NCBI GenBank assembly: GCA_965261085.1
Contig: OZ253442.1
Location: 1,440,001 to 1,504,000, forward strand
DNA length: 64,000 nucleotides
Direction of reading: 5' to 3'
From: a bacterium
GTDB lineage: Bacteria; UBA8248
The notes below the pieces were generated by a model that did not search any database, was not told the origin of the DNA, and was given only the letters and a program-made list of their open reading frames with translations. The first letter of the stretch is position 1. The number at the start of each line of letters is the position of its first letter. The translations under genes were made by a program, and so were the position numbers. Of this stretch, positions 207 to 9,369 are shown piece by piece.

Positions 207-1941
207 GGTTCGAATCTTGGCGGGCCTCCCGCAAGGCCGCGGTCCGGGAGGCGTCGACGCTTCCGCGGACGAGCGCGACGCCGTAGCTCTGCTCCGCCGC
301 GGGTGCGGTCACCTTGCCGGCGGCCACGTCGTCGCGCACCCTCTCCGGATCGCGTTCCCACGGGTCGCCGAAGCCGGCACCGGACGGGGTGTCGACCCGA
401 ACCGTCGTTCCCGCGTCCACCTTGAGCTCCGAGAACGAGCCAGGAAGCTTCGTCTCGCGGTTTCCGCCCGGGTCCAGAACGAAGACGCCGGGACACCCCG
501 AACTTCCGCCAAACAGCCCGGACGCGCCTCGGGATTGGCGCAGTCCGCGGCCTGCGAGCCTCGCCCGCTCCGCCCAGATGGTGACGTCGCGGCGCGTCGC
601 GAGGCCGCCGCGATGCCGTCCGGGGCCTCCCGAGTCGGCGATCAGCTCGTAGCGGCCGACGGTCAGCGGGAACTCCTGCTCCACGGATTCGATGGGCAGG
701 TTGGCCGCGCCCGAAACGTGGACCCGGACCGCGTCTTTTCCGTCGAGCGCGGAAAGCGCGCCGGACGCTCCCGCGTAGGTCTCGTAGTCGACGAAGTACT
801 CGTTCCGGCGCGGGTCGACGCCGCTGAAGATAAGCCCGTGGAGCGGACCGCAGCCGGCCATCACCCGGTCCGGCGCCGCGTCGGCGAGCGCGCCCAGCAG
901 CAGGTCGCCGAGCACGTTGCCGGTCGCGCCCCGATCCCCGACGGCGGCGGGGGGGCGGCAGTTGACGACCGTGCCTTCCGGCGCGGTGACGCCGATGGCG
1001 CGGAAGTACCCGGAGTTGGGCGGCAGCGCCGGGTCCGTCACCGCCTTGACCGCGTAGTAGACGCCGGACAGGGTGGCCGCGAGCGGCATGTTCCGGGCCC
1101 CTGCGATCTGCCCATCGGTGCCCGTGAAGTCGAAGTGAATGCGATCGACGCGAATGGTGATCTTGACGCGGAGGCGAACGATGCCGTCGGCCACGCCGTC
1201 GTTGTCGACCACTTCTTCGTTCTCGTAGGTTCCGTCCGGCAGCCTCGCGATCTCGGCGCGCGTGCGCGACTCGGCGTAGTCGAGGAGCGCTCTCGCGCCC
1301 CGGTGCACGCTATCGGCTCCGAAGCGAGCAAAGCACTCCTGCACCCGGCGGACCCCGATGGCGTTGGTCGCGATCTGGGCCCGCAGATCGCCCTCGCGCT
1401 CGCGCGGGGTGCGCGAGTTGAGGAGCACGAACGCGAGTATGTCGGTGCACAGCTCCCCCTCGTCCAGCAGCTTGACGGGAGGGATTCGCAGCCCTTCCTG
1501 GAAGATGCTCGTGCAGTCGGCGCTCTCGCTCCCCGCCACCTTGCCGCCGATGTCGGAGTGGTGGGCGATGTTGGCGACGAACGCGACCGGCCGGCCATCG
1601 AAGAAGACGGGGCTTGCGAGCGTCAGGTCCGGCAGGTGCGAGCCGCCTCCCACGTACGGATCGTTCGTGAGGAAGCCGTCGCCGGGGCGAAAGCGGTCGA
1701 GGGGGTAACGCCGGGTGATGTTCTCCACGAGGCCGAGGAGCGAGCTCAGGTGAAGGGGGGCGATGGCGGTCAGGGCGAGGAGGTTGCCCGCAGTGTCGAA
1801 GATCGCGACCGAGCAGTCACGCCGCTCCTTGATGTTCGGGGAATACGCGGTCTTGACGAGGGTGGCCATCATCTCGTCGGCCGCGGTGGCGAAGCGGTGC
1901 GCGATGACCTCGGTGGTGATTCGGTCGCAGCCTGGATCCAT
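196..1941 (-). CDS. Hydantoinase B/oxoprolinase family protein
   Basis: Motifs AYSPNIKERRDCS, NDPYVGGGSHLPD, AHHSDIGG, FQEGLRIPP, SGGPGRHRGG; ATG at 1941 preceded by GGGGAG SD (the ORF track start at 2043 lies inside the IS256 end). Confidence 0.93.
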   Translation of the reverse strand: MDPGCDRITTEVIAHRFATAADEMMATLVKTAYSPNIKERRDCSVAIFDTAGNLLALTAIAPLHLSSLLGLVENITRRYPLDRFRPGDGFLTNDPYVGGGSHLPDLTLASPVFFDGRPVAFVANIAHHSDIGGKVAGSESADCTSIFQEGLRIPPVKLLDEGELCTDILAFVLLNSRTPREREGDLRAQIATNAIGVRRVQECFARFGADSVHRGARALLDYAESRTRAEIARLPDGTYENEEVVDNDGVADGIVRLRVKITIRVDRIHFDFTGTDGQIAGARNMPLAATLSGVYYAVKAVTDPALPPNSGYFRAIGVTAPEGTVVNCRPPAAVGDRGATGNVLGDLLLGALADAAPDRVMAGCGPLHGLIFSGVDPRRNEYFVDYETYAGASGALSALDGKDAVRVHVSGAANLPIESVEQEFPLTVGRYELIADSGGPGRHRGGLATRRDVTIWAERARLAGRGLRQSRGASGLFGGSSGCPGVFVLDPGGNRETKLPGSFSELKVDAGTTVRVDTPSGAGFGDPWERDPERVRDDVAAGKVTAPAAEQSYGVALVRGSVDASRTAALREARQDSNRGA

Positions 1942-1955
1942 GGGCACTCCCCGAC

Positions 1956-3326
1956 GAGTTACTGTCAGAAGTTGTGTATGAGCTGAATTGAAGAAGGCGC
2001 ATCCTGCTGAAATAGGGTTGTCCAAAGCCCGGTCATTCAGCACACAGGAGATGCTCCACCATGAGAGAAGATACGACGATTCCTTTCCGGAATCCAGCCC
2101 TACGGGACGAGTTGAGCGAACTGGTGCGCGAGGGCGCGCAACGAATCATCCGCCAAGCGGTGGAAGCGGAGTTGGAGGCCTTTCTGGAAGGGTATGCGGC
2201 CGACCGTGACGCGCAAGGTCGACGCGCGGTGGTTCGCAACGGCTACCTGCCGTCGCGGGAGGTGTTGACGGGTGTGGGTCCGGTGCGTGTCCGGGTTCCG
2301 CGGACGCGGGACAGGTCGGGCGCGGGCCGGTGCTTCCGCTCGGAGTTGCTGCCGCCGTATTTGAAGAAGACGAGGCGTATGGAGGCGGTGATTCCGTGGC
2401 TGTACCTGAAGGGGGTATCGACGAACGACTTCGGTGAAGCGCTCACGGCGCTGTTCGGCGAGTCGGTGAAGGGATTGTCCCCGGCGAGCGTCGCGCGGCT
2501 CAAGGACGGCTGGGAGCGTGAGTACGCGCAGTGGCGCGAGCGGGACTGGGGTGGCGAGGAGTTCGTGTATCTGTGGGCGGACGGGATCTACGTGAACGTG
2601 CGCGGCGAGGAGCGGCGTTGTCTGCTAGTGGTTGTGGGCTGCGACGCGCGTGGCCGCAAGCGCTTCCTGGCCCTGGAATCCGGGTTCAGGGAGTCGAAGG
2701 AGAGCTGGAGGCGGTGCTGTTGAGCCTGCGGGACCGGGGCGTGAGGGCGGCGAAGCTGGCGGTGGGCGACGGTGGGCTGGGGTTGTGGTCGGCCCTGGCC
2801 GAGGTATATCCCGAAACCCGTGCGCAGCGTGCTGGGTGCACAAGACGGCGAACGTGCTCGACAGGCTGCCCAAACGGGTTCAGGGCGAAGCGAAGTCGAT
2901 GCTGCACGAGATATGGGGGTCGGACACCCGTGCGCATGCGAAGGAGGCTTTTGAGCGCTTCTGTGCCACCTGGGAGGCGAAGTACCCGAAAGCCGCCGAT
3001 TGCCTGGCGGGGGACCGCGAGGAGTTGCTCGCCTTCTACGACTTCCCGGCGGCGCACTGGCGGAGTCTTCGGACGACGAACCCCATCGAATCGACCTTCG
3101 CCACCATCCGCTTGCGAACGGCGAAGACGAGGAACTGCCTGAGCGAGAAGACGGCGCTGAGCCTGGTGCATCAGCTCGCCATGAGCGCCGAGAAGCGATG
3201 GCGCCGACTACGCGGCTTCCATCATCTGGCCGAGGTGATCGCCGACGTGAGGTTCATCGATGGGGTGGAGGAAAAAGAATCGGGCGGGAGGGCCGCTGGA
3301 TTCAGGACGGCCATACAACAGATTTG
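1956..3326 (+). mobile_element. IS256-family insertion sequence, degenerate; right inverted repeat interrupted
   Basis: Left IR GAGTTACTGTCAGAAGTTGTGTATG (1956-1980); partial right IR CATACAACAGATTTG (3312-3326) resembling the reverse complement of the left IR, then an abrupt switch to an IS1111-type end. Confidence 0.82.
2061..3300 (+). pseudogene. IS256 (mutator) transposase split by frameshifts
   Basis: Motifs RNGY, LYLKGVST, YLWADGIY (frame 1), LAVGDGGLGLWSAL (frame 2), CWVHKTANV and LRTTNPIES (frame 3); frameshifts near 2705 and 2828. Could be decay or sequencing indels. Confidence 0.9.
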
Positions 3327-3339
3327 TGTATGGACGCGC

Positions 3340-3597
3340 CCAAGAATGCAAGCGTTGGCCCGGAGGTTTTGGTGCGTTATGGTCAGACTCATTCGTGTAT
3401 ACGGCCTCTCAATTGCGGCGTTTCACTATTACCGCGGGCCCGTATGGAAATGCGAGGATCGGGTCCGAATCGACCGTGCGAGCTTGAAAAACTCCAAAAT
3501 CTGGTCCTGGTTTTCCCGACCCCGTCTCAATGACCGTTCGCCCCTACCTCCTCATTCGGCCTGCTCACATTCCCGCCGTGCTCCGCTCGCCTGCCGC
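3340..3597 (-). ncRNA. Putative IS1111-type bridge/seek RNA
   Basis: Downstream non-coding region with stem GGGGUCGGG/CCCGAUCCU enclosing an internal loop (ACCAGAUUU ... GCACGGUCG), and a second stem-loop region carrying UCCAUAC, which matches the element end. Confidence 0.72.
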
Positions 3598-4073
3598 TCA
3601 GGCGGCCGGCGCCGGCTCCCGGTAGAATTCTCTGTTCGTAATCAGCGCCCAGTCGATGCGCGCCATCCTGTTGGCCAGCGCCACCGCAACCAGCATCTTG
3701 GGCTTACGCGCCAGCATCCGGGCCAGCCACGATCCGGGAGGCGCGCCTCGCCGGACCGCCCAGCGCACCACGCTCATCGCGCCCGTGATCAACAACCGCC
3801 TCACGTCGCGCTGGCCCATCTTCGATATCCTACCCAGTCGCGGCTTGCCTCCGGTCGAGTGCTGTCGCGGCACGAGACCGAGCCAGGCGGAGAAGTCGCG
3901 CCCGCGCCGGAAGCTTGCCATCGGCGGCGCGAAGGCCTGTATCGCCGAAGCGCAGATCCGCCCGACCCCCGGGATGCTCATCAGGCGCCTCGCCTCTTCG
4001 TCCTCGCGCGGAGTCGCCCCTCCAGCTCCGAGACGCTTTCTGCGGTGGCCAAGACGTCCAATACCTCGTCCAG
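3598..4073 (-). pseudogene. IS110/IS1111 recombinase, C-terminal fragment (Transposase_20)
   Basis: SIPGVG, FSAWLGLVPRQHSTGGK (catalytic Ser motif), ISKMG, VAVALANRMARI; the N-terminal DEDD RuvC-like domain is absent. Confidence 0.9.
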
Positions 4074-6626
4074 CTATGCTTTCAGGCGGGCGCCCTCAGG
4101 GTCGAACATCGCCGAGCGCGAAGCCACGGTCACGGGGAAGCACTCGCTCATGTATAGCACCTGCAACTTGATGCCGGCCACCGCCCGCTCGATCGGCAGG
4201 TAGGCCAGCAGGAGGTGCTGGCCGAGGGACGGTCCCATGCCAGCCGAGGTGACGAAGGACTCCCGTCCGCGGACGTCGACGAGGCGCTTGCCGTCACGCG
4301 TCAGGATCGGTTCGCTGCTACCGGTGGGGAACCGAAACACCCCGGATTCGCTGGTGTGACCGTCAACCGTCAGCGCACACAGCTTCGCCGCCGGACCTTC
4401 GGCGCGTGCCTGCAGGTAGGCCTGCTTCCCGATGAATTCCGCGGCCTTCACGCGGGGCCGCGCCAAGCCCGCCTCCACCGGCGAGTACTCGGAGGTGAGA
4501 TCGGCGCCCATGAGTGCGTATCCCTTTTCAAGGCGTCCCGTGGTGCCGTAGACGCCGATACCGACGGGTCGGGCGTCGAAGGCGCGGCCCGTCTCCCAAA
4601 TCGCGTCCCACAGGCGCACGCCGTGCGACGTGCGCGTGTAGATCTCCCATCCGCTCTCGCCCACGTAGGAAATGCGCAGCATCGTCGTCGGAACGCCATC
4701 AATAATCACCTCCTGCATCGTCCCGTACGGAAACGCTTCCTGTGTTAGCGGGGTGCTGGCAATCTCGGAGAGCAACGCGCGGGCATCCGGTCCCCATACC
4801 CCTATGGTGCAGAATGCCGACGATTGGTTCTCGAACTGAACCGAGCCGTCCCTGGGCAGATGGCGGCGGAACCAGACCTCGTCGCGCGCACCGTCGAAGA
4901 CTCCGGTCACGATGCGGAACCGATCATACGCCAGCCTCTGTATGGTGAGATCGGCGCGGATCCCGCCATCCGGCGTTAACAGCGGGGTGTAGATCGAGCA
5001 GCCCACCGGACGATCGCAGAGGTTGACCGTCAACCGCTCCAAGTAGGGCACGACGCCAGGTCCGGACACGTCAAAGATCTGAAAGGCGCTCAAATCCACG
5101 ATCCCGACTTTCTCCCGCATGTGGAGATGCTCCGCGTTGATGATCGGCGACCACCAGCGGCGATCCCATTCGTGCGGGCGATCCGAAACGCCGTAGCGGG
5201 CGACCAGATCCTCGTTCGACGCGTACCACTGGGGTCGCTCCCAGCCGTGCGCTTCGAAGAATTCGGCGCCTAGGTTCGCGGTGCGATCGTAGAACGGTGC
5301 CCGGTGCATGCCGCGAGCGGACGCCCACTGCTCACGCGGATGCACGATTCCGTACGTCTTGTTAAAGTGCTCGCAGCAGCGCTGTCGAATGTGCTGCTCG
5401 GTTCGCTCGTGCGGGTAGAACCGCGTGATGTCCGAGCCGTGTGGATCGCACAGACGCGGATAGCCGTAGGTGATCCACTCGGCGATCAAGCGCGCGGTGC
5501 CGGGGCCCTCCTTGATCCAAACTGCGGCCGCCGACCAGAGCTTCTCCACCTCGGCAGTCTCGCCCAGCACCTGCCGCGCATCCGGGGTCAGAGACAGTAG
5601 TCCGTTCACCGAATATTGCATTTCGGAACCGGCAAGCAACTCGCCCATAATCGTCCGGGCATGCTCGAGCTGCGGAGCGAAGTCATCGCCGGTGAAGGGC
5701 ATCTCGGTGGGTGTCCGCTCCGCCTCCGCAAAGGAAGGAATGTCATCGGGTTGCACCAAGATGGGGCGATGGGCATACGAGCCGATCTCCATCGCCTCGT
5801 GACACTGTCGCTCGTACATGAAGGTGTCCATGTCGCGGACGATCGGATAGTCGATCTCGTTTCCCGTCCTTCGCAGCAGGTCGATCGAGCCCATGTCAGC
5901 CATCTGGTGCACCGCTGGGGTAAGCGGGATGGTCGCTCCGGCGAGCGCGGCGACTCGCGGGCTCCAGACACCGCACGCAATCACCACCTGTTCCACCGCG
6001 ATCGTGCCGCGCGTAGTCGCCACGGCCCGGATGCGCGGACGGCCGAACGGCGGGCGTGATACCTCCAGCCCGGTGACCTCGGTGTTGTCCAGCACGGTCA
6101 GCACTCCCTTGGCCCGCGCCTGCTCACGCATGATGGTGCCCGCCCGGACCGAGTCGACCACCGACACGCTCGGCGTGTAGAAGCCGCCTAGGATCACGTC
6201 ACCGTTCACGAACGGTACCTTGGCAACCACCTCGGCGGGATTAAGTAGCTCGGCCTCGATACCCCAGCAGAGAGCCGAGGTCATCCGCCGGAGCAACTCT
6301 TCCATGCGAGCATCCGTGCGTGCCACTTCGATACCGCCACACATGGTGTTGACGCCGAGCGCGGCATACTGGCGTTGGCTCTCCAATGTCAGCATCGTGA
6401 TCTCGCGATTGTGATCAGTGGGGAAGATGAAGTTCGACGCGTGGCCGGTCGAACCACCGGGGTTAGGCAGCGGCCCCTTTTCGATCAGCAGTAGGTTGTC
6501 CCACCCCAGCTCCGCCAAGTGCCGCACTAGGCAATTGCCAACGATACCGGCACCGATCACGGCAATCGTCGCCCGTGTCGGCGGCGGCGAAGTGCTCTCG
6601 GCTAGGCTGCTGATGGAGTCTTTCAG
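4074..6626 (-). CDS. GcvT-family FAD-dependent oxidoreductase (dimethylglycine/sarcosine dehydrogenase-like)
   Basis: IAVIGAGIVG Rossmann motif, GSTGHAS, GWERPQWY, C-terminal GcvT domains. The frame is open to about 6626; the start is uncertain (CTG/ATT after GGGGGA, or GTG at 6560, which would clip the first beta strand). Confidence 0.9.
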   Translation of the reverse strand: MKDSISSLAESTSPPPTRATIAVIGAGIVGNCLVRHLAELGWDNLLLIEKGPLPNPGGSTGHASNFIFPTDHNREITMLTLESQRQYAALGVNTMCGGIEVARTDARMEELLRRMTSALCWGIEAELLNPAEVVAKVPFVNGDVILGGFYTPSVSVVDSVRAGTIMREQARAKGVLTVLDNTEVTGLEVSRPPFGRPRIRAVATTRGTIAVEQVVIACGVWSPRVAALAGATIPLTPAVHQMADMGSIDLLRRTGNEIDYPIVRDMDTFMYERQCHEAMEIGSYAHRPILVQPDDIPSFAEAERTPTEMPFTGDDFAPQLEHARTIMGELLAGSEMQYSVNGLLSLTPDARQVLGETAEVEKLWSAAAVWIKEGPGTARLIAEWITYGYPRLCDPHGSDITRFYPHERTEQHIRQRCCEHFNKTYGIVHPREQWASARGMHRAPFYDRTANLGAEFFEAHGWERPQWYASNEDLVARYGVSDRPHEWDRRWWSPIINAEHLHMREKVGIVDLSAFQIFDVSGPGVVPYLERLTVNLCDRPVGCSIYTPLLTPDGGIRADLTIQRLAYDRFRIVTGVFDGARDEVWFRRHLPRDGSVQFENQSSAFCTIGVWGPDARALLSEIASTPLTQEAFPYGTMQEVIIDGVPTTMLRISYVGESGWEIYTRTSHGVRLWDAIWETGRAFDARPVGIGVYGTTGRLEKGYALMGADLTSEYSPVEAGLARPRVKAAEFIGKQAYLQARAEGPAAKLCALTVDGHTSESGVFRFPTGSSEPILTRDGKRLVDVRGRESFVTSAGMGPSLGQHLLLAYLPIERAVAGIKLQVLYMSECFPVTVASRSAMFDPEGARLKA

Positions 6627-8816: not shown

Positions 8817-9369
8817 GCATCCTGAACCGGACGCGAGACGCGAGTAGAAGCCACCTCTTTCGAGTCCACGTCATATCAACAGCGCCAGGACCGTGCCGAA
8901 ATGTTCGGCCCATCCACTACCATAATTCATGGTATATGAAATTGAACAGTCCAACACGGACAGACCGCCCGGTTGTCCTAAGGGTTATCGTTTCCTTGTC
9001 GGGGTGTTTCGGAGTCGGTGGATAGCGGTGGCGGGGTTCCGCAGATGCATTCTCTGCCGTGCAATGGATGTCGCCGCCGATGGAAAGGCGAAACATGACC
9101 GCAGGCAAACCGTTGTGAGCGGGACTTTGCAGAAGGAACGCGCAATTGTCCGACACGGGTATCCTTTCAATCGTCGGGTGAGATCGTCGCTGGCACCAGA
9201 GGCAGTTGTTGGTATTGTGCGGCGTAGTCGGTTTGGGCCGGTGCTTTCTTGGCCACCATCACCCCACGACTGAATGATTACCGGGAAACAATATCGAAAG
9301 ACGGCATGGTTGAGATCCTTATGGGGCGGCGCGTCGTGCGGCCGCCGGAGTATTACCGGCCCGGATGAG

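Follow-up and report, generated by a model that had tools for sequence, protein, structure and literature searches.

The closest described relatives of the element studied here are ISEc11, ISKpn4, ISPst6, and ISPa11, insertion sequences (IS) of the IS1111 group that carry a seekRNA (Siddiquee et al. 2024, PMC11187229). A seekRNA is recognized as an RNA of 70–170 nt that is produced, copurifies with the transposase, and is essential. According to sections 4 and 9 of that paper, the segment complementary to the top strand of the target lies 5′ of the segment matching the bottom strand in IS1111 seekRNAs and the two overlap, which is the reverse of the order in the IS110 type; natural re-aiming between close relatives is also described in its text (ISEc11 versus ISXne4). 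For 93% of IS1111 elements, a bridge RNA was predicted in the right end, as stated in the text of a second study (Durrant et al. 2024, PMC11208160). We analyzed a 64,000-nt stretch of a bacterial genome of the UBA8248 lineage (assembly GCA_965261085.1, contig OZ253442.1, positions 1,440,001 to 1,504,000), hereafter called the window, in which a truncated IS1111 element at 3327–4029 on the minus strand abuts an IS256-family element. The 3′ tail of this remnant very probably encodes a seekRNA that specifies the right inverted repeat (IR) of IS256. RNA-guided targeting by IS1111 and IS110 elements and its natural re-aiming were already known (published in 2024), and no new mechanism is proposed here.

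The locus resembles the four seekRNA elements in the transposase of its lineage (about 340 aa, with DEDD and PF02371 domains), in subterminal repeats with extensions of 7 and 3 nt, in a long non-coding region downstream of the transposase gene, and in two guide segments, T and then B, that overlap at the crossover. It differs from them in its target, the IS256 right IR being absent from the targets named in the text of PMC11187229, and in that the window copy is truncated and its RNA is predicted from the sequence. Like the IS621 bridge RNA as presented in the text of PMC11208160, the single predicted RNA has separate target and donor segments, and both strands of each site would be read around a common core. 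Whereas the IS621 RNA is encoded 5′ of the recombinase gene, in the left end, the guide here is placed downstream, in the right end, so that the IS621-type arrangement was not found, and the order of the strand matches is reversed (text of PMC11187229). By these features, the element is a member of the IS1111 group with an RNA predicted to work like a bridge RNA. The core of IS621 is CT, whereas a single shared C is visible here.

Ends of other transposons have been named as targets before. IS4321 and IS5075, members of the IS1111 family, reportedly insert in the terminal IRs of Tn21-family transposons, in work attributed to Partridge and Hall from 2003. The present element likewise enters the terminal IRs of another transposon and differs in the host (IS256 here, Tn21 there), as far as the title of that report allows a comparison. 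The IS110-family element IS1383 is said to have the IRs of IS1384 as its integration site, in work attributed to Müller and others from 2001; judged again by the title, the kind of target is the same, an IR of another IS, the family of the host IS differs (IS1384 there, IS256 here), and no guide-RNA analysis belongs to that report. IS256 ends as a target of an IS110 or IS1111 element were not found in the literature search, which left aside the supplementary target logos of PMC11187229 (about 300 IS), where one might be listed.

Insertion in the right end of IS256

The IS256-family element occupies 1956–3326 on the plus strand, with Pfam Transposase_mut (PF00872) on open reading frames (ORFs) 2061–2723 and 2719–3330, its transposase gene being divided into two halves by a frameshift near 2700. 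Both marks of the IS256 family, a Mutator-type transposase and terminal inverted repeats, were found, the latter by comparing the repeats across genomic copies. The last retained letters at 3326 are ...CATACAACAGATTTG (also given as ...GGCCATACAACAGATTTG), and the retained inner portion of the right IR (3310–3326, plus strand) forms the right flank of the IS1111 insertion, reading CAAATCTGTTGTATGGC on the IS1111 strand. Three intact IS256 relatives in the same genome run 10 nt further, with AC(C/A)GTA(A/G)CTC, and this tip mirrors the left IS256 repeat GAGTTAC.... The right IR in the window has thus lost its outermost 10 nt, and the initial annotation, which had it end at 3326 and fuse directly to the end of an IS110/IS1111 element, was correct in this respect.

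The guide type of the window was also found at four other loci (L010, L011, L013, and L025). When 185,579 species genomes were scanned with a guide-based pattern, exactly these four and no others were retrieved, and scans of metagenome contigs with one guide-based and one joint-based pattern gave 0 matches each. When the flanks were tabulated, all five copies lay in IS256 right ends, with CAAATCT(G/T)(G/T)TGTATGG as the right flank of each. L010 (1377 bp) and L011 (1380 bp) are full-length and L025 measures 1376 bp, while L013 is 5′-truncated, as is the window copy. The left flank of L010 and L011 is ...GAGTTACGGC, joined to CGATGGG and then ATGGACGCGCC; that of L025 is ...GGGTTACAGT, joined to CGATGGG. 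In the sister genomes, the repeat is thus preserved in two halves around the full-length copies, with GAGTTACGGY to the left and CAAATCTGGTGTATGG to the right. Because the 10 nt missing from the window are found on the far side of these copies, the IS1111 element must have entered a pre-existing IS256 end.

The window, L010, L011, and L013 represent one inherited locus, with the same IS256 beside the same hydantoinase-B-like gene at 95–99% identity. L025 lies in a separate, 82%-identical IS256 in a different context, which makes two independent insertions. In both, the element sits between GAGTTACGGY and CAAATCTGG in a constant orientation, so that the site- and orientation-specific insertion without target duplication that is typical of seekRNA elements was found, with a single ambiguous C common to both joints (^ marks the insertion point here and below). 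The target had been predicted as roughly GCACGGTCAAATCTGGT; the full-length copies give GAGTTACGG(C/T)^CAAATCT(G/T)(G/T)TGTATGG, which is the same site.

An assembly chimera at 3326/3327 was ruled out. Contigs from two other public runs bridge the joint, one spanning 3288–3683 with 0 differences (run X2, record 13) and one spanning 3281–3683 with 3 differences (run X3, record 23), and the identical joint recurs in three sister genomes. In a contig of run X19, an IS256 relative extends past 3326 into an intact repeat tip, ACAGTAACTC. The left end of the IS256 element (window 1940–1960) precedes the start codon of a minus-strand hydantoinase-B/oxoprolinase-like gene by about 15 nt, and this insertion is also present in three sister genomes.

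Predicted guide and donor segments in the non-coding tail

The 271-nt region 3′ of the transposase gene (3327–3597), which is the predicted seekRNA or bridge-RNA gene, lies on the minus strand together with all segments described below. In an alignment of such tails, two short variable blocks, T and B, were found between otherwise conserved blocks. T, ACCAGAUUUUG (3495–3505), is complementary to C-AAATCTGGT on the top strand of the right flank. Its core, ACCAGAUUU(UG), with ACCAGAUUU at 3497–3505, had been noted to match the window flank at 8 of 9 positions; this holds, and the match to intact IS256 ends is 9 of 9 and contiguous. In L025, where the flank is AATCTTGT, the T block is ACAAGAUU, a compensating change.

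B, ACGGUC (3472–3477), is identical to the final 5 nt of the left flank, where the outer IS256 repeat half (..TTACGGY) lies, with the shared C added; extended by the following GAU (from 3469), it reproduces the left joint, flank plus CGAT. The loop side GCACGGUCG (3471–3479), earlier likened to the missing outer half of the IR, indeed contains ACGGUC, the half that is preserved in the orthologues as ...GAGTTACGGC. Compared with B, the left flank of L010 and L011 (ACGGC followed by C) shows one U:G wobble, and that of L025 (ACAGT followed by C) shows one mismatch to its own B, ACUGUC. T precedes B in the 5′-to-3′ direction, with an overlap at one C, which is the layout of a seekRNA.

More than 40 related copies are present in the genus, and T and B shift together with their flanks, covarying with at least eight different targets on near-identical scaffolds. 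For this comparison, 33 distinct rows were retained of 35 with a right flank, and 18 distinct insertions were evaluable for B. In these 18, covering all subtypes, B agreed with the left flank plus C at six of six positions in 11 insertions, at five in another 5, and at four in the remaining 2. The initial proposal of an element with a guide RNA aimed at IS256 ends, and with loop segments that follow the flanks across homologues, is thus supported by the placement of all five copies and by this covariation. The mean match of B was 5.60 of 6 in own-type pairs (n = 62) versus 2.31 in cross-type pairs (n = 262), and the mean longest complementary run of T to the right flank was 6.79 (n = 117) versus 3.90 (n = 972), the pairs being drawn from related copies and hence not independent samples.

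This non-independence is the first of several points that weigh against a guide RNA specifying IS256. Only two independent insertions of the window's guide type are available. Four copies of a sister subtype, c2, fit their flank only at CATTC (5 contiguous nt) and at GGTC after a 1-nt bulge, and T runs of just 3–5 nt were obtained for L016, L029, L030, L040, and L043. The fold of the window sequence by itself had a z-score of +0.94, with 160 of 200 shuffles at least as stable. An Rfam scan of 1800–4300 returned no matching family; its three matches had E values above 1 and were to unrelated long non-coding RNA, microRNA, and small nucleolar RNA families. RNA-library runs X18 and X19 yielded only short contigs from relatives, 90–95% alike, and such Logan contigs are uninformative on RNA ends or levels. 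Finally, all copies of the subtype are defective: the window copy and L013 are truncated, and the longest ORFs of the others are 367 aa (L010, out of frame at the N-terminus), 233 aa (L011), and 296 aa (L025) versus 341 aa, where some of the frameshifts could be long-read homopolymer errors as an alternative to real defects.

As the single-sequence fold was no better than shuffles, we relied on the alignment-based structure. The stem reported earlier, formed by the 5′ arm GGGGUCGGG (3515–3523) and the 3′ arm CCCGAUCCU (3455–3463), closes the target-binding loop and is present both in the single-sequence fold and in the consensus of 20 diverse tails. In this consensus, T and B lie on opposite sides of the internal loop, which is capped by a small apical hairpin, GAG...CUC, between them (helix 6, 3480–3494). 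The closing stem (helix 4) has 8 pairs, with 99.4% of cells paired and compensatory changes in 2 pairs. For the consensus structure, 98.7% of cells are standard pairs versus 20–45% with partners slid, and 5 pairs are changed on both sides versus 1.8 in shuffles.

The donor side was assigned to an 8-nt segment, D, AUACACGA (3393–3400), which consists of the last 5 nt of the element followed by CGA, the start of the left end. D equaled the joint of the abutted element ends in 42 of the 43 evaluable copies (loci L010–L054, five end classes), the sole exception being a degenerate copy; six rows were not evaluable, as the anchor or the end was not found. A separate donor part that covaries with the element's own ends, as expected of a bridge RNA, was thus observed. 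The initial annotation had instead pointed to a loop carrying UCCAUAC (3442–3448). Its identity to the element end at 3328–3334 stands, but among the 20 aligned tails it is nearly constant, whereas the 3-nt terminal extension changes among ACA, GCA, GTA, and ATA. Since it remains essentially invariant across subtypes with differing ends, it shows no sign of programming and was rejected as a programmed donor guide; the ends are tracked by D. No convincing candidate was found for a partner segment complementary to the left end (the RDG equivalent). D together with T and B fits the two-part RNA, target plus donor, predicted for IS1111 right ends in the text of PMC11208160.

The covariation also bears on the view that the transposase protein alone picks the site and that the likeness between loop and flank stems from shared ancestry or from recombination with IS256. 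Transposase sequences do differ between subtypes, as this view would have it, but the two segments have opposite senses relative to the target (one antisense, one sense), a hairpin separates them within an otherwise conserved scaffold, and simple sequence capture would not yield such an arrangement. With segments that follow at least eight targets on a nearly unchanged scaffold, and with RNA guidance experimentally demonstrated for four IS1111 members (text of PMC11187229), we regard targeting by the protein alone as very unlikely.

The remnant, its relatives, and their targets

The remnant corresponds to about positions 668–1380 of an element of 1376–1380 bp and is identical to the full-length orthologue L011 at 733 of 769 positions, with a 10-nt deletion near its upstream edge. 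Its ORF (3598–3981, minus strand, 127 aa) encodes the C-terminal transposase domain, with Pfam PF02371 (Transposase_20) only and no DEDD domain, and matches positions 223–341 of 343 of NCBIfam NF033542 (IS110 family RNA-guided transposase); the recombinase copy is therefore truncated, as had been noted. The ORF contains GLVPRQHSTG, an instance of the IS1111-family motif GL-P----S(t)G. Because the loss of the 5′ 670 nt took the catalytic domain and the repeat tip, the window copy is a dead remnant, a fossil.

Other IS1111 features were found as well, namely the long non-coding region downstream of the transposase gene (271 nt) and subterminal inverted repeats in the expected range of 11–13 bp. 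The right repeat, GGGCGCGTCCAT (3330–3341, minus strand, 12 nt), has its partner, ATGGACGCGCC(C), behind the 7-nt extension CGATGGG in the full-length copies. The terminal extensions are 7 nt on the left (CGATGGG) and 3 nt on the right (ACA, 3327–3329) when the shared C is assigned to the left end, as is usual in IS1111 elements. Taken together, these features fit the definition of the IS1111 group in sections 4 and 6 of PMC11187229. A conserved TTGCAT (3346–3351, minus strand), 17 nt before the end joint, stands out in the tail alignment, and with (C/T)ACGAT of the abutted ends it may form a candidate circle-junction promoter, in line with a general statement in section 4 of the same paper. 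The remnant is a mosaic relative to its orthologues, its upstream 159 nt (3871–4029) being 89% identical and its downstream 544 nt (3327–3870) 99–100% identical, which suggests past recombination between subtypes.

In the genome of the window, nine matches to the remnant were obtained, itself included, comprising four full c2 copies of 1376 bp (85% identical), one internally deleted copy, and several degenerate pieces. Among 42 genomes of the family, 15 matched the non-coding tail, all of them in the genus of the window. The four c2 copies (L002–L005) are identical and interrupt IS66-family ends 5 nt from the tip (GTAAG^CATTCGGTCG); one flank encodes DDE_Tnp_IS66 (a transposase fragment) and a DruA-like (Druantia) ORF. 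The boundaries are fixed by empty sites, GTAAGC^ATTCGGTCG, at genome positions 276208 and 3722733, from which a single C common to target and element is evident. The c2 transposase has 341 aa with PF01548 and PF02371 and scores 321.7 bits on NF033542 (cut-off 140); the IS1111 hallmark of a 330–350 aa protein with DEDD and PF02371 domains was thus seen in this sibling lineage, whereas the window copy has PF02371 alone.

In the internally deleted copy (c6, genome positions about 1872342–1873025), the first transposase codons (MEQGHIIGIDLAK...) are joined to the C-terminal third. The guide of c6 agrees with the IS66-type target at 9 of 9 positions, more closely than the guides of the four full copies, but the right flank of c6 is unrelated. 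An unoccupied look-alike of the IS66-type end, GTAATCATTCAGTCGTGGGGTGAT, lies in the window at about 9258–9274 (minus strand). Facing pairs of this end, 220 bp apart, occur in the same genome at 1213161/1213381 and 2515167/2515387 and look like miniature non-autonomous derivatives.

Further subtypes carry other guides. The guides of L034 (about 1400–1830) fit a second site in the right end of IS256, TTCAGGA^CGGCCATAC, which is oppositely oriented and located 28 nt from the tip, with T matching the flank at 9 of 9 positions and B equaling the IS256 sequence at window 3305–3311; this copy is 5′-truncated with its left side lost, and on its right only a complete solo repeat of IS256 is left. Three subtypes in three genomes, represented by L019 (about 1500–1900), L020/L033, and L014 (about 1500–3100), are nested inside the tail of another IS1111 copy at GAGAGGC^CGNATNNAC, just upstream of the donor-matching block of the host copy, with T matches of 9/9 for L019 and for L020/L033 and of 7 contiguous nt for L014. 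Other subtypes sit in palindromic repeats such as CGGACATATATGTCCG.

The presence of four intact siblings raises the possibility that the guide gene of the remnant is still transcribed, e.g., by read-through from an oxidase gene, and re-aims these siblings at IS256 in trans. The 271-nt tail is 100% identical in the three sister-genome copies of the locus versus 94.7–98.7% in the adjoining IS256 half, a weak hint of constraint. A scan of 3200–4300 found no promoter or terminator, and since no terminator-like site separates the remnant from the oxidase-like gene that adjoins it upstream on the same strand (stop at 4074), read-through would be possible. The tail scaffold is common to the c2 subtype, and a seekRNA is not strictly bound to one close transposase group (PMC11187229, section 9). 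We nevertheless consider re-aiming in trans highly improbable. Excision needs a donor flanked by the matching target, according to the discussion of PMC11187229, and all four c2-type copies lie in IS66-type ends and none in an IS256 end. Moreover, 0 differences in 271 nt are only weakly unusual at a background divergence of 1–2%.

A genome search with the joined 15-mer gave one perfect site in the 4.27 Mb versus 0.005 expected and two sites with at most one mismatch versus 0.26 expected. These two sites are unoccupied right ends of IS256, and the empty perfect target, at genome position 3774411, is a further argument against re-aiming in trans. The reverse order of events, in which IS256 transposed beside an existing IS1111 end and the guide-like matches are coincidental, has practically no chance of being right and is excluded by the split repeat: IS256-family elements show little site preference on insertion and just one side of the joint survives in the window alone, but an incoming IS256 would carry a complete repeat, whereas here the last 10 nt are absent and lie across the IS1111 element in L010, L011, and L025, and a 15-mer match with 0.005 expected occurrences would have to be fortuitous.

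Proposed course of the insertion and its meaning

For an RNA-guided insertion of IS1111 into IS256, we propose the following course. The conserved stem of the RNA would enclose a loop in which the 11-nt T pairs with the top strand immediately to the right of the crossover and, after the small hairpin, the 6-nt B pairs with the bottom strand immediately to its left, with one C common to T and B; further 3′, D would copy the joint of the element's abutted ends. The RNA is presumably produced from the tail and bound by the transposase. An ancestor with a DEDD transposase would have entered IS256 10 nt from its end, in a single orientation and with GAGTTACGGY and CAAATCTGGTG on either side, parting the repeat tip from the rest of IS256. 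In the genome of the window, the 5′ 670 nt of the element, including the catalytic domain, would later have been lost together with the repeat tip. We infer that the split IR disables IS256, in which case one transposon parasitizes and inactivates another, as the initial annotation put it.

A tentative and rather doubtful extension is that the IS1111 lineage of this genus radiated by rewriting three short RNA segments, with much of the rewriting aimed at mobile elements, as antagonism or a search for safe harbors under selection, and that orphan guides like that of the window copy could re-address intact siblings. The mobile-element targets in such a radiation would be two sites in the right end of IS256, the tip of IS66-family ends, and the guide-RNA region of a sibling IS1111.

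IS110 and IS1111 recombinases are under development as genome-insertion tools, and the rules of the IS1111 guide code are still being worked out. The genus offers a natural series for this purpose, as more than 40 copies with a nearly constant scaffold and at least eight addresses expose the code. The nucleotides that appear to be read are about 8–10 nt right of the crossover, 5 nt plus the shared C left of it, and an 8-nt copy of the element's own end joint. The locus would add IS256 and, through the siblings, IS66 and IS1111 itself to the mobile elements whose ends serve for IS1111 landing, which is relevant to competition between transposons and to the shelter that one may find in another.

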